Positions 38,661 to 50,885 of a stretch of 64,000 nucleotides of DNA are shown here, piece by piece. Every line of letters starts with the position of its first letter. Within the stretch, counting starts at the first letter, position 1. The notes beneath the pieces are model-generated. The model saw nothing but the letters and a program-made list of their open reading frames with translations, was not told the DNA's origin and did no database searches. A program made the translations under genes and the position numbers. The DNA lies in the NCBI GenBank assembly GCA_963555975.3, contig OY821663.2:1785278-1849277 (forward strand). The letters run 5' to 3'. This DNA is from Dehalococcoidia bacterium. GTDB taxonomy: Bacteria; Chloroflexota; Dehalococcoidia; Lucifugimonadales; UBA2985.

Positions 38661-39023
38661 TCAGTTCCCGCCGAGAAGCGACTCCGCTTCCTCCACAAAC
38701 TCCCGCACGCGGCCAAGGCTGAAGGCAACCCTGGCCGTATCCATCCAACCCTCATAAAAGTTGGAGTGCAGGGTGTTGGCCGCATGGAACCCGTATCGTA
38801 GTGTCCTGCTCTGAGTCTCGTCCTCCAGTCTGCCCATGATGGCAAAGAGGAGTCGATGGCTGCCGTGTGCCCAGCCACGTTGGGCTGCGACGGCCTTCAG
38901 GATTTGCGCGGCTGCCCCCCATCCCTTCTCAGCGGCCTGAAGCAGGTCTCCGGCGTCAAGTTCAGCGAAAGCTTGCTCCAGGAATATCCTGCTCCGCTCT
39001 CGGTATGTTTCGTAACCCTGCAA
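38661..39023 (-). CDS. PaREP1-like small helical protein, copy 1
   Basis: TTG start with GGAGAG upstream. It shares the motif GDLLQAAEKGWGAAAQILKAVAAQRGW with copies 2 and 3. The PaREP1 assignment is from memory of that family's LxQASEKxWGA signature. Confidence 0.6.
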   Translation of the reverse strand: MQGYETYRERSRIFLEQAFAELDAGDLLQAAEKGWGAAAQILKAVAAQRGWAHGSHRLLFAIMGRLEDETQSRTLRYGFHAANTLHSNFYEGWMDTARVAFSLGRVREFVEEAESLLGGN

Positions 39024-39226: not shown

Positions 39227-39589
39227 TCAGCGTGTCTTGAGCAAGGACTCTGTGGAATCCACGAACTCTTGCACGTCGCCGAGGCTCCACTTTATCAAGG
39301 CTCTATCCAGCCAGCCCTCTGAGAATATGGTGAGCAGGAGGATGGCCGCGCCCAAGCCGTCCAGTAGTTCCTCGCGTTGTTCCTCGCTTGCCAGACTGCA
39401 CACAATGCCGAACAGTTGCTGTTGGCTGTCGTGCTCCCATCCGCGCTCCTCCGCGACGGCCCTCAGCATTTGCGCGGCCGCTGCCCATCCCTTCTCGGAC
39501 GCCTGGCTCAGGTCGCCCGCCTCAAACTCGACGAACGCCTGCTCCAGATAGGCCCTGCCTTGCTCCCGGTATGTTGCAGTGCTCTGCAC
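39227..39589 (-). CDS. PaREP1-like small helical protein, copy 2
   Basis: GTG start with GGGAG upstream. Roughly half of its residues are identical to copy 1 by eye (GDLSQASEKGWAAAAQMLRAVAEERGW). Confidence 0.6.
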   Translation of the reverse strand: MQSTATYREQGRAYLEQAFVEFEAGDLSQASEKGWAAAAQMLRAVAEERGWEHDSQQQLFGIVCSLASEEQREELLDGLGAAILLLTIFSEGWLDRALIKWSLGDVQEFVDSTESLLKTR

Positions 39590-39624: not shown

Positions 39625-39750
39625 GAATTCTAGCACAGTGACCGGCCGGGAGTCACCCGTCGACCAGCCCCCAACCCGCCGCTCCATTCGCTGAAGCCCC
39701 CCCACACCCCGCGTTTGCCCTGCCGCCCGCGCCGTGGTAGTATGGCGGCT
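39625..39750. repeat. ~120-bp duplicated intergenic segment, copy A, containing a promoter-like TTGCCC-17-TAGTAT (39715-39743, + strand)
   Basis: It aligns by eye with 40754-40871 (GAGTCACCCGT...CCCCAACCCGCCGCTC...TCGCTGAAGCCCC...CACCCCGCGTTTGCCCTGCCGCCCGCGCCGTGGTA(G/C)TATGGCGGC). Confidence 0.75.
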
Positions 39751-39780: not shown

Positions 39781-40155
39781 CTACGCATTCCCGCTAAGGG
39801 CTGCCAGGGCCTTGACCAGTTCCTTGGCGTCTTCTATGCCTTCTCGCACCGAGTCCTCATCAAGGACTGCCTGATAGAAGTTGGCGTGAAGGGCCTCAAC
39901 TGACCTCAGGAGCCTCCGATAGTAGGGCGCGTCTGTCGGATCCCAACTGAAGATTTCTCGGGCATTGTCAATCAGGTGGTTGTGTGAGCCTAGAGGCCAG
40001 CCTCGCTGGCGGGCTATGGCGTTCACGTAGTGAGAAACGGCGCCCCATGCCTTCTCGGATGCCTGGAGCAGTTCTCCCCTGCGAAATTCGTCGTCAGCGT
40101 GCTCCAGGAACTGATTGCTGATAGACAGGTGTTGTTCAGCCGTGGCCACTATCAT
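39781..40155 (-). CDS. PaREP1-like small helical protein, copy 3 (divergent)
   Basis: Motif GELLQASEKAWGAVSHYVNAIARQRGW. Its ATG overlaps the stop of the upstream gene (ATGA at 40155-40152). Confidence 0.6.
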   Translation of the reverse strand: MIVATAEQHLSISNQFLEHADDEFRRGELLQASEKAWGAVSHYVNAIARQRGWPLGSHNHLIDNAREIFSWDPTDAPYYRRLLRSVEALHANFYQAVLDEDSVREGIEDAKELVKALAALSGNA

Positions 40156-40673
40156 TCCCCTGCGTAAGCCTTGGGTTCCGTGTACTCGATGAGAGAGAAC
40201 TGCCCCTCAACGTCCACGAACCGTATCGTTGTCTCCACGCCGAACACGTCGATCAGGTGGAGCGGCTCCCCTATTGCAAATCGTACGGCAGGCGTTGCGA
40301 GCTGTCCGTTGATGGCGATGTTGTTGGCGTAGACATACCCGTCTTTGTGCGGACTCAGCCGTCCCTCTACCCCCGGGATGAATCCGGCGCTCTTGGTGAA
40401 GAGCAGGGCCCTTCTCTCGTCTTGGGACGGCTCCAACCTGAGTGGAACGAGCTCTTCAGGCGAAGGCTCGATAGTGTCCTTGAACGGCAGATGACCTGCC
40501 GCCGCTGCCAGAACCTTCACGGGCTGGTCCGTGCGATAGAGGCTGAACCGGCAATGCCCGTCTTGGCTGCTTATGCCGGTCAGGTATGTGCCGTTGGGAT
40601 AGGCTACCAGAACCACCGCCCCCTTTACGGGCGTACCTTCACCGGACGTAACCAGGAAATCCAAGTTGTTCAT
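40152..40673 (-). CDS. hypothetical two-domain beta-rich protein (N-terminal CarboxypepD_reg-like sandwich), translationally coupled to PaREP1-like copy 3
   Basis: ATG at 40673 is preceded by GGGAGAGG; the longer ORF to 40742 is less likely. The N-terminus VTSGEGTPVKGAVVLVAYPNGTYLTGISSQDGHCRFSL resembles carboxypeptidase-regulatory-like domains. Confidence 0.5.
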   Translation of the reverse strand: MNNLDFLVTSGEGTPVKGAVVLVAYPNGTYLTGISSQDGHCRFSLYRTDQPVKVLAAAAGHLPFKDTIEPSPEELVPLRLEPSQDERRALLFTKSAGFIPGVEGRLSPHKDGYVYANNIAINGQLATPAVRFAIGEPLHLIDVFGVETTIRFVDVEGQFSLIEYTEPKAYAGE

Positions 40674-40753
40674 GTCCTCTCCCGTACCTAAAGCCGGCCT
40701 GCGCTGCTCCTGAGCTTCATTATACAACATGCAACTGCTCATCCTGCCAGCAA

Positions 40754-40871
40754 GAATTGCACGGCTGGCGGCCGCGAGTCACCCGTGCTATCACCCCAAC
40801 CCGCCGCTCAACTCGCTGAAGCCCCGCACCCCGCGTTTGCCCTGCCGCCCGCGCCGTGGTACTATGGCGGC
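40754..40871. repeat. ~120-bp duplicated intergenic segment, copy B, containing a promoter-like TTGCCC-17-TACTAT (40837-40865, + strand)
   Basis: See copy A. Here the predicted promoter faces the EVE-domain gene. Confidence 0.75.
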
Positions 40872-40910
40872 GCGGCATTCAACCCGCAGTCGATACACCG
40901 GGAGAGAGCA

Positions 40911-41399
40911 GTGGCTAGAGGAAAGACCTACTGGATGGTGGCCAGCTCCCTCGAGAACTTTCACATCACCCGAGAACGAGATTTCACGCTCCAGGGCATG
41001 ATGTCCCGCCAGCGCCGCAAGGCCCAGCGCATGGAGCCGGGCGACAGGCTGGTCTTCTACATCACCGGCGTGCAGGTTTTCGGCGCAACGGCCACCATCA
41101 CCTCAAAGTGTTCGGAAGACCACGAGCCCATCTGGAAGAGCGACGGCAAGGCGGACGATTTCCCTTGGCGGGTCAACATTCGGGCCGAGTTCGCCCTTGA
41201 GGACGAGCAGTTCCTGGACGCACGGCAGATCGGCCCTCGCATGGAGTACGTGCGCCGGTGGCCGCCGGAGTTGTGGCCCCTGGCGTTCCAGGGCAACCTT
41301 CACATCCTGCCCAAGGCGGACTTCGAGATGCTGGAGCAGGAGATGCGGAAGGTGACCTCTCGCTGGGCGCAGCGGCGCGTGGCGCAGAACGGCTACTAG
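40911..41399 (+). CDS. EVE/PUA-like domain protein (UPF0310-like)
   Basis: GTG start after GGGAGAG. The pattern KTYWMVASSLENF...MEPGDRLVFYITGVQVFGATATITS...FPWRVNI matches my recollection of archaeal UPF0310 EVE proteins. Confidence 0.6.
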   Translation: MARGKTYWMVASSLENFHITRERDFTLQGMMSRQRRKAQRMEPGDRLVFYITGVQVFGATATITSKCSEDHEPIWKSDGKADDFPWRVNIRAEFALEDEQFLDARQIGPRMEYVRRWPPELWPLAFQGNLHILPKADFEMLEQEMRKVTSRWAQRRVAQNGY

Positions 41400-42580: not shown

Positions 42581-44062
42581 CTACCAGACATTTTGCTTCG
42601 CCAAAAATGAGGCGTCTTCCCGGGCCGTCTCAGTCGAGAGCCAGTTTGCCCCGTCGGAAGTTAGCAGCACGGGAGCGATGCGCGCCAGCAGATCAGGGCT
42701 GTTCACATGCTGCCGCACGTTCGACTCTGGCATTAGGCCCAAGGTAGCTACCAGCCAGTCTGGGACTGGACTCTGAGTACCAGCCGCGGCGACAAGCATT
42801 TGCAGGGCCCTATCAGAGCCGATTGTGCGCATAGCCAATGAGGCAGCCGGGGCCCGGCGATGATCTCCAGAGACGAGAATGCCCACTAGGGCCTCCAAGA
42901 CATGGGTTGGAGCGTCGGCACCAAATGCACAAATCGCATGAATGGCAACACCTTCATCCACATCATCTATGAAGGGAAGGAGATCCTCGTAGGACGCAAG
43001 GCCAGCCTTGCCCAGTCCCCAAACTGCGGCTTGACGAATCTCATCTCCTCCAAAGCGCGGATCGCTAGCGACCCGCCTGAGTTGATCCCGGGCAAATCCG
43101 TTGCCGAGCTCTGTCAATATGAATACGGCTTCCATGCGCAACTCTGGAAGTCCTTCGTTGTTCCAAATGTAGCTGGACAATTTAGACTGGGCGTATTGCG
43201 AACCCAGTGCTGTGCCTGTACCAGCGGCTTCCAAGGCTACGCGCTGGTCCCCTTCCCGACGGATGAGGCTCTCTATGGCACTCACGGCTTCAACTCCGGC
43301 TACTTGTCGATATCGAAGGGCCTTGACCGCCGCATACCTATCGACGCCGCTTACTGCGGTCAGATCTTCCAACGGGTCATATTTGAGGGACGAATAGTTG
43401 GACAGATCAGCTAACGCTGGCGGAACTCCTGCCAAGATTGTGACTTTTGCATCGAATTCGTCGCCCGGGTGAAAATAGGCAGCCCTGCCGCGTAGCGTAT
43501 ACGTTTGTTTCCGTGCTGATTGTTCACTAGTGGCGTGCATTTGGACCACTAGTCGATTGGAGTCGACGCTCAACACAGTGCCGTCTCTCGTGGGTACTGT
43601 GGCAGGCCACGTTCGGTCCCGCTCTGCCCCTTCAGAAGAGGACTTGGGCGGGCCAAGTTGTGATTGATCGACCGAGTCGCGCAGCGAACCCACAGTAAAG
43701 TAGTTGGCAAAGTTGGCTGGTCGCAGCCCATCCTCTGACTGGGAGCAGAGAATTACCGCGACGATGTCTTTGTCTCGCAGGCCGGCATCCCACACCCGGT
43801 CCGGATTCGATGGCGTGTCACTCATGCGAATCTTCAGGTCAGTTTTCGCACGAGCTTCGACACGCATCCCGGTTTTTGCACATAGCAGGTCGGGGAGCCT
43901 AAGGCGTTTGACTTTCGTAGCCCAAATCTTGTTCGACGCGCAATAGCGCTCCAACTCAATTGGTTCAAAGCCCTTGTCGCGGAGGTCCTGGATGATGCGT
44001 TGTACGCCGACAGCACCAATGCTCAGGTACCGAAGAAAGCTCGCGTCAGCTTTGAAGGCCAT
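42581..44062 (-). CDS. PD-(D/E)XK-like N-terminal domain fused to C-terminal HEAT/PBS-lyase-like repeats (putative effector of an R-M-like cassette)
   Basis: 493 aa and AT-richer. It contains RLPDLLCAKTGMRVEARAK near the N-terminus and HEAT-like repeats in the C-terminal ~200 aa (EIRQAAVWGLGKAG, VAIHAICAFGADA). Its ATG shares a base with the stop of the upstream XRE gene. Confidence 0.45.
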   Translation of the reverse strand: MAFKADASFLRYLSIGAVGVQRIIQDLRDKGFEPIELERYCASNKIWATKVKRLRLPDLLCAKTGMRVEARAKTDLKIRMSDTPSNPDRVWDAGLRDKDIVAVILCSQSEDGLRPANFANYFTVGSLRDSVDQSQLGPPKSSSEGAERDRTWPATVPTRDGTVLSVDSNRLVVQMHATSEQSARKQTYTLRGRAAYFHPGDEFDAKVTILAGVPPALADLSNYSSLKYDPLEDLTAVSGVDRYAAVKALRYRQVAGVEAVSAIESLIRREGDQRVALEAAGTGTALGSQYAQSKLSSYIWNNEGLPELRMEAVFILTELGNGFARDQLRRVASDPRFGGDEIRQAAVWGLGKAGLASYEDLLPFIDDVDEGVAIHAICAFGADAPTHVLEALVGILVSGDHRRAPAASLAMRTIGSDRALQMLVAAAGTQSPVPDWLVATLGLMPESNVRQHVNSPDLLARIAPVLLTSDGANWLSTETAREDASFLAKQNVW

Positions 44063-44289
44063 TAGTCGGCTCCGTCAGGGACAGGGTTGAGAAGATCCTG
44101 GGCACTGACCTCAAGGCTCTGAGCAATCTTGAAGAGGTTCTCAAGGGAAACGTTACGCTGGCCTCGCTCCACTGAGCTTATGTAGGTTCGATGCAAGCCT
44201 GCCCGGTCCGCGAGTTCCTCTTGGGAAAGCCCAGCCGACAGTCGGTGATGCCTTAGATTGTGTGCCAAAATCTGCCTAGGCCCTAGCAT
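44062..44289 (-). CDS. XRE-family HTH protein (controller/C-protein-like)
   Basis: 75 aa. LSQEELADRAGLHRTYISSVERGQRNVSLENLFKIA is a canonical XRE HTH. It is the first gene of a two-gene operon divergent from a methyltransferase. Confidence 0.8.
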   Translation of the reverse strand: MLGPRQILAHNLRHHRLSAGLSQEELADRAGLHRTYISSVERGQRNVSLENLFKIAQSLEVSAQDLLNPVPDGAD

Positions 44290-44400
44290 TTCCTGCTCCG
44301 ATACCCCATTAGACTATTGCCTTGAGGTTAGAGCGGTGTTACACTTACGTCTACAGACTATACGTCACACATCTGGCATCGCCCTGAGGAAGTTACACCA

Positions 44401-46155
44401 ATGACCAGAACTGTCGAGAGTCTCCCCGATAGCATTGAAGTGGCGCGGAACGACCCACTCTACAACTGCCACAGCTATCTGACAAAGGTACCCATTGATG
44501 CTATTGTGCCGTTCATTGATGTCTTCACACAGCCTGGGGAAACCGTTGCCGACTTCTTTGCCGGGTCAGGTATGACGGGGCTTGCAGCGTTAACCTTGGG
44601 ACGGAATGCTAGGCTAAGTGACATTTCTGTGCTTGGCCAACACATTGCAGATGGCTACTTGGTAGAAGTCGACGACTCCGCATTCCGCCGCGTCGGAGGC
44701 GAGGTGGTCGAAGTAGCACGGCGCGCCGTAGATAATCTCTATCACACACTGCGGGCTTCAGATGGGTCAACTGTCGACTTTGTCCGAACCGTCTGGTCGT
44801 TCACATACATCTGCCCGTCATGTCAGAATAGGCTCATCTATTTCGAGCAGATGAACGAAACGAATAGGCCACCCTCTCATTGCCCAACCTGCGATAGGCC
44901 ATTCATTAGAAGGAATTGGCCGAGATCTAGCGATGAGCCAGTACAAGTTGTGGTGGTGGGCAACAACGGCAAGCAGGAATTTCAGGCCATCTCTGGATTT
45001 GATCTACAGCGGATTGCAGATGCCAAGAGAGACTCACGTCTCAAAGAAGTTCCTTCACAGACGATAGAGCCAGAGCGTGAGATGTACAGCCGGTCAGGAC
45101 TGGCAAAGTCCGGACTCACCGAGACCAAGAAGTTCTTCTCCCAACGCAACGCAATTGCACTACTGGAACTCTGGACTGCAATCAACCAAGTTGAAGACGC
45201 ATCTTCGAAGCAGAAGCTTCGATTCTGCTTTACGGCGATCCTGCCGCGCGCATCAATGCGATATCAGTGGGGTGCCAAACGGCCACTGAATTCTCAGAAT
45301 CAGACCTATTACATAGCACCCGTCTACTATGAGTGGAACGTGTTCGACCTATTCCGCCGGAAACTCGGTGCCGCAAGAAAAGCCGCCGCTTATCTGGCAG
45401 AACGGGTGAATGGGCTGACACCGGCTAGGAATGCCAAGGTGACATATGATATTGCCTCAGCCGACAGTCTGGCTCACTTGAAGAATGAGTCTATCGAATA
45501 CGTCTTTACCGACCCTCCATTTGGCAGCAACATCTTCTACAGTGACATGAACCTGTTCCAAGAGGCTTGGTTAGGTAAGGTAACAGACCAGTCCTCAGAG
45601 GCTGTCATACACACTACTGGCAAAAGGGTGGCCCATTCAGCACAAAGATACGAGGACATCCTTAGGGACGCATTTCGAGAAGGCTGGAGAGTCCTGAAGC
45701 CCGGCGGACACATGTCTGTGGTCTTCGGAAACAGCAAAGGTCGCGTTTGGGGCTCTGTTCAGCGGGCGTTACGGGAGATTGGCTTTGACCCCAGTCCGGT
45801 CCATGTAGCAATCCTCGACAAAGGCCAACGCTCGGTGAAGGGACTAAACTCTGGAACCGAGGGCGTAGTGACGGCTGACTTGATCCTAACTGTGCGCAAA
45901 CCACTCAGAGGTAGTCTTCTCAACCGACAGTACCATCTACCGTTAGACGGTACCAGAGACATTGTTGCCAGGATAGTCGACGAGATTAGCTTGGAGACCA
46001 CCCCGAACCCGAGCCATGTGTATGCGCGTGTCATCCGGGAAGCAATTCGCAATGGCATAGTCTTGGACAATCTACATTTCAGGGATGTCCTTCTCGCCCT
46101 GCGAAACAAAGGTTTCCGTGTAGATGGCAAGACTGGAATGCTCGTAAGGCTCTAG
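44401..46155 (+). CDS. DNA methyltransferase (N6-adenine or N4-cytosine) with an internal Zn-ribbon; motif I precedes motif IV
   Basis: Motif I DFFAGSGMTG (aa 51-60), ribbon CPSC...CPTC (aa 138-164) and motif IV TDPPFG (aa 370-375) followed by LKPGGHMSVVF. Confidence 0.8.
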   Translation: MTRTVESLPDSIEVARNDPLYNCHSYLTKVPIDAIVPFIDVFTQPGETVADFFAGSGMTGLAALTLGRNARLSDISVLGQHIADGYLVEVDDSAFRRVGGEVVEVARRAVDNLYHTLRASDGSTVDFVRTVWSFTYICPSCQNRLIYFEQMNETNRPPSHCPTCDRPFIRRNWPRSSDEPVQVVVVGNNGKQEFQAISGFDLQRIADAKRDSRLKEVPSQTIEPEREMYSRSGLAKSGLTETKKFFSQRNAIALLELWTAINQVEDASSKQKLRFCFTAILPRASMRYQWGAKRPLNSQNQTYYIAPVYYEWNVFDLFRRKLGAARKAAAYLAERVNGLTPARNAKVTYDIASADSLAHLKNESIEYVFTDPPFGSNIFYSDMNLFQEAWLGKVTDQSSEAVIHTTGKRVAHSAQRYEDILRDAFREGWRVLKPGGHMSVVFGNSKGRVWGSVQRALREIGFDPSPVHVAILDKGQRSVKGLNSGTEGVVTADLILTVRKPLRGSLLNRQYHLPLDGTRDIVARIVDEISLETTPNPSHVYARVIREAIRNGIVLDNLHFRDVLLALRNKGFRVDGKTGMLVRL

Positions 46156-49643: not shown

Positions 49644-49720
49644 GGGCCGTTAGCTCAGTTGGTAAGAGCTCCGGACTTTTAATCCGGGAGTCCAGGGTTC
49701 GAATCCCTGACGGCCCACCA
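49644..49720 (+). tRNA. tRNA-Lys (anticodon TTT), CCA encoded
   Basis: Hand-folded. Acceptor GGGCCGT/ACGGCCC, anticodon stem CCGGA/TCCGG with loop CTTTTAA, and T arm CAGGG-TTCGAAT-CCCTG. Confidence 0.9.
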
Positions 49721-49823
49721 GACTTGATAAGATCAAGAACCTTCACGCTGGAGGTTCCAGAGAAGTCGTCATCTGTGCATGAGGTTGAAGGCCGCTGCCG
49801 CCATTGACCGCATCGCTGAAGGG

Positions 49824-50402
49824 TCACGCCTTGCTGAGCTTGATTGTTCCTACCTCTCCCCTTCCGCGCCCCGTGTAGTAGTCGCCCTCAAGCCCTGTGC
49901 CGGTGAGATATAGAGTTGCCGTACCACGGTGCATCTCCATTGTGCCTGGAGCATTCGACTTGGGCTCGTTCACGTACTGGTAGGACAGCTCGGGATTGGG
50001 AAGGTCAGAGGTCCTCAGGCTGGCCGCGATGCTCCGTGAGCGAGAATGTTCACTTTCCAGACTGACAATTATCTTTGACCATCGCTGCGAGATGACGACG
50101 GAAACCGAGTGGGCGCTGCCACCCTGGCCGTATGAGGATTTGACCTCACCGACCCACTTCCCGTTGAGATCGGGAAGTTGAACAAGGTTGAGCTTTCTGA
50201 ACAGACCGAGCTTCCACACGCAGCGGTCGAACAACCAGTACAGGCCTGAGTAAAGCCCCGCAAATGAGGGTACGCTCAACCACCACTGCGGGTCGAAGTC
50301 GATGACATCCAGCACGATGTGAAAGAGCCAAACCATCAGGATACTGGCGGCAGCGAGCGCTATCACCACTTTATCATGGCCCTCTACCTCGTAGGAGTGC
50401 AT
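49824..50402 (-). CDS. Cap15-like CBASS effector (two TM helices plus beta-strand-rich domain, S-2TMbeta type)
   Basis: Two N-terminal TM helices (VVIALAAASILMVWLFHIVL, LSVPSFAGLYSGLYWLF). These are followed by LNGKWVGEV...VVISQRWSKIIVSLESEHSRSRSIAASL...LSYQYVNEP...HRGTATLYL...LEGDYYTGRGRGEVGTIKL, which matches my recollection of the SMODS-associated 2TM-beta effector. It lies 9 nt downstream of an NTase remnant. Confidence 0.65.
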   Translation of the reverse strand: MHSYEVEGHDKVVIALAAASILMVWLFHIVLDVIDFDPQWWLSVPSFAGLYSGLYWLFDRCVWKLGLFRKLNLVQLPDLNGKWVGEVKSSYGQGGSAHSVSVVISQRWSKIIVSLESEHSRSRSIAASLRTSDLPNPELSYQYVNEPKSNAPGTMEMHRGTATLYLTGTGLEGDYYTGRGRGEVGTIKLSKA

Positions 50403-50411
50403 TCGAGGAGA

Positions 50412-50885
50412 CTACCTCCAGTTGTTCCACAGAGATGCCAGCCCATTCGCAAATGCCTTTGCGTCCTCCACTGACCACTGTTCAGACGATGGACCGGACA
50501 GCCACTGCTGACCATTCTGGCAGATGAGCCAATCGAGGTCGTTCTGAACCACCCAGTTGACGATTGAGCGGTAGGTTTCCCGGAAGCTGTACTGAAACGC
50601 TGAGTCTGGCGCATTGTAGACGAGGCACTCGACAAAGTAGGACGGAGCAAGGTCAGGGCTGATCCTGCCAGTGGACACCAAGCGATTCCGGGCATTCTTG
50701 AACATCCTCACAGTTCGTTTGTACCGGTCCCAGGTGCGTGCGCTCTTGACGGCGCCGTTCTTGTAGTGCTCTTTGGGGTAGTTGACGATCCAGCGCTTGT
50801 CACGCAGAGCCAAAAAGGTGACGCCTTCCACGTACGATGAGTAGCTGGTGTACCTCCGATGCTGCTTGCAGACTAGGCAGTCCAT
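50412..50885 (-). pseudogene. 5'-truncated CD-NTase/SMODS-type nucleotidyltransferase (C-terminal half only)
   Basis: 157 aa with NYPKEH...YKRTVRMFKNARN...APSYFVECLVYNAP (post-catalytic helical half). There is no GS...DxD core and an in-frame TGA five codons upstream of the first ATG. The ORF collides with the hsdM 5' end. Confidence 0.6.

Follow-up and report, generated by a model that had tools for sequence, protein, structure and literature searches.

A 64,000-nucleotide stretch of the genome of a Dehalococcoidia bacterium (contig OY821663.2 of GenBank assembly GCA_963555975.3, positions 1,785,278 to 1,849,277; hereinafter, the window) carries a block of three genes that encode a DNA methyltransferase of 584 amino acids (aa), denoted M584, a controller (C) protein of 75 aa, and a 493-aa protein, R493, in which an N-terminal domain with a nuclease-like motif pattern is joined to HEAT repeats. 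This block is likely to represent a horizontally acquired, self-contained, orthodox type II restriction-modification (R-M) system that follows the regulatory design of the PvuII system, most likely recognizes CAGCTG and employs R493 as the endonuclease. Judging from sequence comparison, the R493 endonuclease and, in this locus, also the methyltransferase are best read as non-orthologous replacements of the PvuII enzymes. The original prediction, made from the window alone, was that of a regulated modification/restriction-type defence module with a new effector architecture; the regulated module stands, and its kind is most likely the familiar C-regulated type II of PvuII design rather than a new one.

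The three genes occupy a low-GC island of ~3.7 kb (GC content of 0.51-0.56 over 42.5-46.2 kb, compared with 0.65-0.72 on either side), with an aldo/keto reductase gene as the neighbour on one side and a gene for a zinc-ribbon protein followed by proS on the other, in agreement with the earlier description of an AT-richer block surrounded by core genes. No BREX (bacteriophage exclusion) or DISARM (defence island system associated with restriction-modification) gene set is found around the island, nor were tRNA genes detected at its borders, where there is also no insertion scar, target-site duplication or direct repeat, the longest word common to both borders being 8 nt. All three open reading frames (ORFs) are intact and full length and retain every residue that is invariant in the respective family. 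The methyltransferase gene, on the plus strand, is divergent from the C gene, on the minus strand, which overlaps the R493 gene: the TAA stop codon of C (44064-44062) and the ATG of R493 (44062-44060) have one base in common, forming TAATG on the minus strand and CATTA on the plus strand (44060-44064), exactly as first read. The peptides quoted in the original prediction are likewise all present (RLPDLLCAKTGMRVEARAK and the HEAT strings in R493; DFFAGSGMTG, CPSC, CPTC and TDPPFG in M584). The divergent intergenic region contains the GTCT-AC-AGAC inverted repeat and both AGACTAT copies reported earlier; its length is 111 bp rather than 112 bp, and the two copies lie at 44311-44317 and 44355-44361 rather than at about 44309 and 44364.

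To judge by its matches, the 75-aa protein is a true C protein. It is recognized by the PADLOC profile Control_protein (E = 1.3e-23) and by Pfam HTH_3 (1.1e-17), and its best match in the PDB is C.BclI (1.5e-15), followed by C.AhdI (9e-13) and C.Esp1396I (1.2e-8). It is of the same size as these proteins and belongs to the same HTH_3 fold family, and in the recognition-helix region, GLHRTYISSVERGQRNVSL, it and C.BclI are nearly identical; compared with the systems of the solved C proteins, the window differs in that its right operator has a degenerate outer half-box and its regulation is predicted from sequence. The published consensus of the PvuII-type operator (C-box) is GACT-N3-AGTC-N4-GACT-N3-AGTC, with the spacer TGTA in PvuII itself, where the -35 element overlaps half-box 2A (PMC2175313). 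The C-box of the window fits this consensus, TGTA spacer included. The analysis of related loci covered 16 genome loci and 80 metagenome loci. Fourteen genome loci keep the C-box ahead of their C gene, as do loci with a methyltransferase of the M.PvuII type, and one metagenome locus, L080, has it twice (see below). The two AGACTAT copies and the inverted repeat had been proposed as possible operator sites; the operator is a textbook PvuII-type C-box rather than a new pair of AGACTAT sites, of which the GTCT-AC-AGAC repeat forms the centre and the AGACTAT copy at 44355 is also a part. The copy at 44311 shows no conservation among related loci; it was therefore rejected as an operator and probably occurs by chance. 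At the position of the candidate -10 element, one of the hexamers TAACCT, TAGCCT or TAGTCT is kept in related loci. A terminator scan of the intergenic region yielded none. Thus, the controller and effector layout divergent from a methyltransferase, as originally recognized, is borne out by the C-protein matches, the C-box and the linkage across loci.

The expected co-conservation of the trio also holds. The methyltransferase, C and R493 genes occur in the same layout in 14 of the 16 genome loci, with carriers in at least six phyla (Alpha-, Gamma- and Deltaproteobacteria, Myxococcota, Dormibacterota, Acidobacteriota and Desulfobacteraceae). The coupling of C to R493 is obligate: C lies directly upstream of R493 in all 75 metagenome loci with enough upstream sequence. 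A fourth conserved gene was sought and rejected, the other clusters shared among the 16 genome loci being shadow ORFs inside the methyltransferase or R493 genes, and none of these 16 loci contains a BREX or DISARM partner (PglZ, BrxC, helicase, DrmA/B).

The methyltransferase is far more variable in kind than in presence. Enzymes of the M584 type are found in 56 of 72 loci and are absent from 16; in each of the 10 loci lacking M584 that were examined, the same position is taken by a non-permuted N6_N4 methyltransferase of 330-420 aa with an SPPF motif. Two of these 10 replacements, compared with solved structures, match M.PvuII at E = 8e-153 and 8.5e-144, and the enzyme of one locus (L062) is 68% identical to M.PvuII over 316 aa. 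A DNA methyltransferase is therefore present in all 66 loci in which its identity was checked (56 of the M584 type and 10 of the M.PvuII type). When R493 proteins are arranged in a neighbour-joining tree, those with M.PvuII-type partners make up a single deep clade plus two further groups that branch within the M584-type loci. Because the two types interleave on this tree, the methyltransferase appears to have been exchanged several times, with C and R493 staying. The unusual methyltransferase is not integral to the system: a DNA methyltransferase is obligatory, but its family is interchangeable. Decay affects the other enzyme; L014 has a frameshift in the R gene and L015 a truncated R gene, each beside an intact methyltransferase gene, a pattern that restriction systems usually show.

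Two further observations concern individual loci. In L084, L087-L089 and L098, which belong to the deep M.PvuII-type clade, the C proteins are 43-50% identical to that of the window, and the short region upstream of C lacks a standard C-box. In its place there is a conserved CAAT(A/C)GTCTAG and then a TGTCGCGTG / TGCACGTGCA-like element, which may be a variant operator. A metagenome-assembled genome of another member of the Dehalococcoidia (CBDCTY010000002.1, locus L012, 6001-6684) contains an isolated R493 fragment (aa 10-237, 77% identical to R493 of the window) with no C or methyltransferase gene near it, which looks like a decayed remnant in a related lineage.

The exchange of methyltransferases suggests the specificity of the system. 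M.PvuII methylates CAGCTG (PMC2997769), and it swaps with M584; therefore, the predicted site of R493 is CAGCTG, with M584 protecting the same site. Two independent checks agree with this prediction. The first is L080 (metagenome contig Ga0209012_1000497, 3100-5510), where the order is an M584-type methyltransferase, a C-box, a PvuII-family endonuclease, a second C-box, C and R493. The endonuclease (Pfam Endonuc-PvuII, 1.1e-27) is 34% identical to R.PvuII, with D58, E68 and K70 aligned, and the C-box/promoter region is duplicated, one copy each for the PvuII-family endonuclease and for C with R493. As this locus has a single M584-type enzyme, that enzyme has to protect the host against the PvuII-family enzyme too. 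The arrangement in L080 resembles a transitional state in which one endonuclease is displacing the other.

The second check is the avoidance of the same site in the host DNA of carriers. In 351 kb of host DNA flanking 63 M584-type cassettes, with the expectation taken from a maximal-order Markov model, CAGCTG is the most depleted of the 4096 hexamers (29 observed against ~110 expected, z = -7.7, compared with -4.8 for the hexamer ranked second). It falls below expectation in 45 of 49 loci, with zero sites in 33, and occurs at the expected frequency in three non-carrier loci. The cassettes themselves show the same tendency: CAGCTG is the second-most depleted of 64 palindromes in M584-type cassettes (22 observed, 58.6 expected) and the most depleted in M.PvuII-type cassettes (0 observed, 16.2 expected), and the window cassette has zero sites. 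The signal is seen only after pooling ~80 loci. According to a published systematic study, avoidance of this kind is confined to orthodox type II systems whose endonuclease is independent, and it becomes stronger the longer a system has been resident (PMC4687349).

R493 has more than 1000 homologues, nearly all of 490-495 aa, which are abundant in soil, peat and sediment metagenomes and are named in the sources at most 'hypothetical protein' or 'HEAT repeat protein'; a tblastn search of 72,556 plasmids and 50,697 phage records gave no match. An exhaustive search with the first 235 residues produced 339 clusters at 50% identity, and because every full-length member has 485-510 aa, the head is never joined to another tail. 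In Pfam, R493 matches HEAT_2 alone (aa 360-430, 4.3e-11, above the gathering score), with nothing for the N-terminal part, and there is no match in NCBIfam, PADLOC or PHROGs. The AlphaFold2 model (predicted local distance difference test score, pLDDT, 78.7; predicted template-modelling score, pTM, 0.76) consists of a head, a beta-rich middle and a helical solenoid. The strands of the middle domain (aa ~135-190) are modelled with pLDDT of 84-94, and Foldseek aligns this domain with the small beta-barrel modules of RNA polymerase beta and beta' subunits over 64-80 columns (probability 0.95-0.99, E of at least 0.03). The solenoid comprises ~15 predicted helices (aa 239-489) and matches alphaRep/HEAT proteins in the PDB (3e-9) and, in Foldseek, alphaRep and armadillo designs (1.8e-5), so that the original assignment of the C-terminal HEAT repeats to an alpha-solenoid agrees with Pfam, PDB, Foldseek and helix prediction alike. 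The two ends of the protein differ in charge: the head has an isoelectric point (pI) of ~9-10, and the HEAT part has a pI below 6.3 in 24 of 26 divergent members, typically 4.5-5.5, with a net charge down to -24. The acidity of the HEAT part argues against the solenoid as a DNA-binding surface; HEAT repeats are classical protein-protein interaction scaffolds (PMC4046053). R493 thus joins a nuclease-like head, a beta-barrel and an acidic HEAT solenoid in a conserved arrangement, of which the original prediction had recognized the head, a beta-rich middle and the solenoid. The family has no name in NCBIfam, PADLOC or PHROGs or, for the N-terminal part, in Pfam; a search of open-access papers found no description of a restriction enzyme with a HEAT solenoid.

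The candidate active site is in the head, for which the model gives the order alpha(7-29), beta(34-36), beta(58-61), beta(66-73), beta(100-109). Residues D58, C61, G65, R67, E69, K73, S81, R89, W91 and D99, as well as K140, E147 and W152 of the middle domain, are invariant down to 28% identity, position 71 is R or K in all members, and E36/E38 are at least 90% conserved over the same range. Together, these residues form an E...PD...E-x-(R/K)-x-K pattern, with P57-D58 opening strand 2 and E69-x-R/K71-x-K73 on strand 3. In the model, the pattern sits on the predicted strands where the site of a PD-(D/E)XK nuclease would be expected; the pattern alone is no proof of function. Searches for the fold itself gave little. 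In a Foldseek search of PDB and BFVD, the head model (aa 1-235) had no match at E ≤ 1e-3; its best compact matches, none of them significant, are archaeal Holliday junction resolvases of the Hjc family (1gef, E = 0.078, template-modelling score, TM, 0.40; 2eo0, TM 0.42; Hjc overall at E = 0.078-0.14) and R.SwaI (E = 0.14). With full-length R493, HEAT and armadillo designs dominate, and nothing is found for the head. PDB profile searches with two R493 alignments gave spurious matches only (agglutinin, lactotransferrin, GLD-1), and of 26 divergent heads compared with Pfam at E ≤ 10, a single one matched Hjc, weakly (E = 0.035). When aligned by hhalign with SsoHjc alone, R493 falls into the expected register at a probability of 1% or less, and with an Hjc profile that is shallow and mostly from Sulfolobales, PD aligns with PD and K73 with the catalytic K57 at a probability of ~1%. 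Hjc and the R493 head are alike in predicted strand order and in a basic loop before the PD motif (TKVKRLRLPD in R493, SGSKRKDPIPD in Hjc). They differ in that the first acidic residue of Hjc, E12 in helix 1, has no counterpart in R493, the motif is E-x-R/K-x-K rather than E-x-K, and Hjc has neither a beta-barrel nor a HEAT domain; no similarity between Hjc and R493 is statistically significant. The PD-(D/E)XK-like N-terminus of the original prediction thus stands as a conserved motif pattern, whereas the fold is suggested, being plausible but not proven. R493 as a diverged R.PvuII was rejected, given an hhalign probability of 0.14% and no match to Pfam Endonuc-PvuII (PF09225), a profile for which the L080 endonuclease served as the positive control.

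M584 combines motif I at the N-terminus, a central zinc ribbon and motif IV last. Its PADLOC matches are MTase_II (PDLC03312, 1.9e-97) and PglXI (2.2e-81), in both cases only from profile position ~180 on; of the 919 positions of PglXI, 189-626 are covered. Pfam N6_N4_Mtase is split in two pieces, with motif I at the N-terminus, and the best PDB match, M.RsrI, is aligned in permuted order. Pfam DUF1156 is not found in M584 at E ≤ 1, and NCBIfam DUF1156_antiphage matches the core only (7.7e-6). These matches agree with the initial view of M584 as a short Zn-ribbon enzyme of the DUF1156 type, similar to DrmMI and devoid of the head. With PglXI and DrmMI, M584 shares motif I, zinc ribbon and motif IV in the same order; unlike them, it is ~340 aa shorter, lacks both the DUF1156 head and the C-terminal extension, and is paired with a C protein and a stand-alone endonuclease rather than with BREX or DISARM partners. 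Its identity amounts to ~29% with the methyltransferase from a Roseicitreum plasmid locus that is annotated as BREX-3, and to ~36% with methyltransferases on Arthrobacter-group plasmids. As a separate observation, the closest annotated relatives of M584 (~36%) are two tandem methyltransferase genes on the Pseudarthrobacter plasmid pASPHE301 (NC_015146.1, locus L017, 4367-8114), with a small helix-turn-helix gene upstream, genes for a hypothetical protein and an AAA ATPase after them, and no R493 homologue; here, methyltransferases of the same type may form the basis of another, uncharacterised system.

By analogy with PvuII, the system would be expected to operate as follows. M584 would be expressed first and methylate the host sites. 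The C protein would build up slowly from a weak promoter and bind the left half of the C-box, and the bound protein would activate the bicistronic C-R operon, such that the endonuclease would appear only after the host DNA is protected. At high concentrations of C, the right operator would be bound as well and the operon would be repressed, possibly weakly in the window copy. R493 would then cut unmethylated CAGCTG with the head residues E36/E38, D58, E69, R/K71 and K73, probably as a dimer. The basic N-terminal domain probably holds a PD-(D/E)XK-type active site and would act jointly with the beta-barrel middle in binding and cleavage. The acidic HEAT solenoid is unlikely to be a DNA binder; dimerisation, contacts with other proteins or autoinhibition seem more probable, all speculatively. 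The DPPF motif suggests, also speculatively, that M584 modifies the adenine of CAGCTG.

Several points weigh against this interpretation. The N-terminal domain of R493 has no significant sequence, profile or structural match to any known nuclease, and the head model is moderately confident (pLDDT 75), with poor loops at 40-55 and 86-94. The R493 tree carries no support values. The carrier loci are related, so the cassette counts are non-independent; the flanks that were counted belong to different hosts. The methyltransferase swaps and L080 indicate compatible, not identical, sites, and the specificity assignment is accordingly indirect; furthermore, the presence of R493 beside a classical endonuclease in L080 leaves room for an accessory, non-catalytic role. 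As for the window itself, the outer right half-box is degenerate (GTGT, not AGTC); in PvuII, this half-box is required for autorepression but not for activation (PMC2175313), and repression may therefore be weak here. A simple sigma-70 consensus scan of the intergenic region found no promoter. The host DNA of the window contains 14 CAGCTG sites compared with 28 expected, a non-specific depletion (rank 31 of 64 palindromes), and these counts leave the activity of the cassette in this genome unproven.

The last group of observations could be explained if the window copy were an inactive or recently arrived remnant of a genuine R-M family that does not restrict here, for example, owing to the degenerate right operator or to lack of expression. 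The strong compositional contrast with the flanks would fit such a remnant, along with the missing consensus promoter, the degenerate half-box 2B and the lack of specific avoidance in the host DNA. We nevertheless consider it rather unlikely: the three genes are intact with all family-invariant residues, the same degenerate 2B variant is found in several other loci with intact genes, and weak avoidance is to be expected soon after acquisition (PMC4687349). Mild CAGCTG depletion combined with the compositional contrast fits a recent arrival.

A different possibility, in which we place little confidence, leaves R493 an endonuclease and turns it into one with a protein-interaction switch. The HEAT solenoid would be a regulatory or sensor domain, either a DNA-mimicking autoinhibitor that acts until an unmethylated target is met or a surface with which anti-restriction proteins of phages are sensed or resisted; the family would be an unrelated endonuclease that displaces R.PvuII within the same M/C framework, with L080 as an intermediate.

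It appears improbable that R493 does not cut at all and is a methylation-sensitive, sequence-specific DNA-binding or adaptor protein whose HEAT repeats recruit or regulate a host factor (a nuclease, the replisome or the transcription machinery), being toxic on unmethylated DNA and hence under the control of C and M. Such a role would be compatible with the failure to match any nuclease across R493, with HEAT repeats as protein-protein scaffolds (PMC4046053) and with the additional endonuclease of L080. However, more than 90 loci have only M, C and R493, and without a conserved fourth gene any partner must be a universal host protein shared by six or more phyla. Moreover, the host avoidance of CAGCTG reaches the strength reported for orthodox type II systems whose endonuclease is active (PMC4687349), the invariant residues, acidic and basic, are compatible with an E...PD...ExK site located on the predicted strands, and the R gene decays while M persists. 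A BREX- or DISARM-like defence based on methylation, with R493 blocking phage replication without cleavage, is very improbable, given that M584, despite its place in the PglXI/DrmMI clade (the PADLOC match to PglXI, the ~29% identity to the BREX-3 enzyme, the weak DUF1156_antiphage match), is freely replaced by an M.PvuII orthologue, that the effector is under a classical C protein and C-box, and that PglZ, BrxC, helicase and DrmA/B are lacking from every locus examined.

Table 1. Features of the R-M cassette in the window (positions in nt of the window; aa numbering within each protein)
Feature	Position	Strand	Basis or remark
R493, 493-aa predicted restriction endonuclease	42581-44062	-	ORF
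R493 N-terminal domain, aa 1-135, basic, candidate PD-(D/E)XK core	43658-44062	-	model, conservation
R493 PD...ExRxK	43844-43894	-	part of candidate active site (E36/E38, P57-D58, E69, R71, K73)
R493 beta-rich middle domain, aa 136-235	43358-43657	-	model
R493 near-invariant loop GPPKSxSEGAERDRTW, aa 137-152	43607-43654	-	middle domain
R493 C-terminal HEAT/alpha-solenoid domain, aa 236-493, acidic	42584-43357	-	Pfam, PDB, Foldseek
C protein, 75 aa	44062-44289	-	ORF; PADLOC, Pfam and PDB matches
Candidate -10 of the C-R operon, TAACCT	44325-44330	-	10 nt downstream of C-box
C-box, 26 nt, GACG-TAT-AGTC-TGTA-GACG-TAA-GTGT	44341-44366	-	left operator intact, right half-box 2B degenerate
Candidate -35-like element, TAGACG	44348-44353	-	overlaps half-box 2A, as in PvuII
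M584, 584-aa DNA methyltransferase	44401-46155	+	ORF; PADLOC and Pfam matches
M584 motif I DFFAGSGMTG, aa 51-60	44551-44580	+	
M584 CxxC...CxxC zinc ribbon, aa 138-164 (CPSC 138-141, CPTC 161-164)	44812-44892	+	
M584 motif IV TDPPFG, aa 370-375	45508-45525	+	

The window contains several other features of note. An ORF at 40785-41399, 1.2 kb from the R-M cassette, encodes an EVE (PUA-like) domain (Pfam EVE, 1.2e-6); it is called at 204 aa, with a start that is probably too early. EVE-family domains are often tied to modified-base recognition. Farther away, three tandem paralogous genes of ~120 aa on the minus strand (38661-39023, 39227-39589 and 39781-40155) match Pfam PaREP1 (1.7e-17, 5.9e-11 and 1.8e-12, respectively) and are PaREP1/HEPN-like; the PaREP1 family was named from archaea. 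They are followed by a 196-aa Ig-like ORF (40152-40742), and neither the paralogues nor this ORF match PADLOC. A 50-nt direct repeat, CCCC(A/G)CACCCCGCGTTTGCCCTGCCGCCCGCGCCGTGGTA(G/C)TATGGCGGC, occurs in two copies that are 96% identical, one upstream of a PaREP1-like gene (39700-39749) and the second in the interval that separates the 196-aa ORF from the EVE-domain ORF (40822-40871); it might serve as a common promoter, or it might be a small mobile repeat. In a second low-GC patch, tRNA-Lys(ttt) (49644-49720, plus strand) is directly followed by a remnant of CBASS (cyclic oligonucleotide-based antiphage signalling system), the two together covering 49644-50885. The remnant includes, on the minus strand, a Cap15 effector with two transmembrane segments (49824-50402; Pfam Cap15_CD_rec, 1.5e-31, and Cap15_TM; PADLOC 2TM effector, 4e-60) and a 157-aa ORF (50412-50885) that matches an oligonucleotide-cyclase profile (1.2e-53) over its C-terminal half only (138-297 of 297); from its sequence, the cyclase looks truncated or frameshifted.

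Unrelated endonucleases that share one specificity are common. If R493 does cleave CAGCTG, its family would be a PvuII isoschizomer of a different and much larger architecture, likely a new endonuclease fold family, and a candidate new enzyme for commercial or mechanistic use. One controller and operator framework is found in three forms, namely, an M.PvuII-type methyltransferase with R493, an M584-type methyltransferase with R493, and an M584-type methyltransferase with both an R.PvuII-family endonuclease and R493, which together show how endonucleases and methyltransferases of the same specificity can swap while the regulatory chassis stays. With its PglXI/DrmMI core and no BREX or DISARM context, the short M584 may be of use in learning what those systems gain from the DUF1156 head.

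The closest known system is PvuII of Proteus vulgaris, which consists of M.PvuII, C.PvuII and R.PvuII and recognizes CAGCTG. The two systems are alike in that M is divergent from C and C overlaps R; the C-box is of the same type, with the TGTA spacer and a -35 element over half-box 2A; an M.PvuII orthologue is present in sister loci, and a PvuII-family endonuclease is kept in L080; and the hosts that carry R493 avoid CAGCTG. They differ in both enzymes. R493, with its 493 aa, beta-barrel and HEAT solenoid, has no detectable similarity to the 157-aa R.PvuII, and M584 is of the PglXI type (motif I, zinc ribbon, motif IV DPPF), whereas M.PvuII is a 336-aa beta-class N4-cytosine enzyme with SPPF; in addition, the CAGCTG specificity of the R493 system is one that we infer. 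Therefore, the C-regulated type II R-M system of PvuII design is the known part of this cassette. What is new is an endonuclease family that combines head, barrel and HEAT solenoid and for which no relatives could be detected, the use of a short methyltransferase of the PglXI type as a type II enzyme standing alone, and the swapping of both enzymes on one regulatory chassis.

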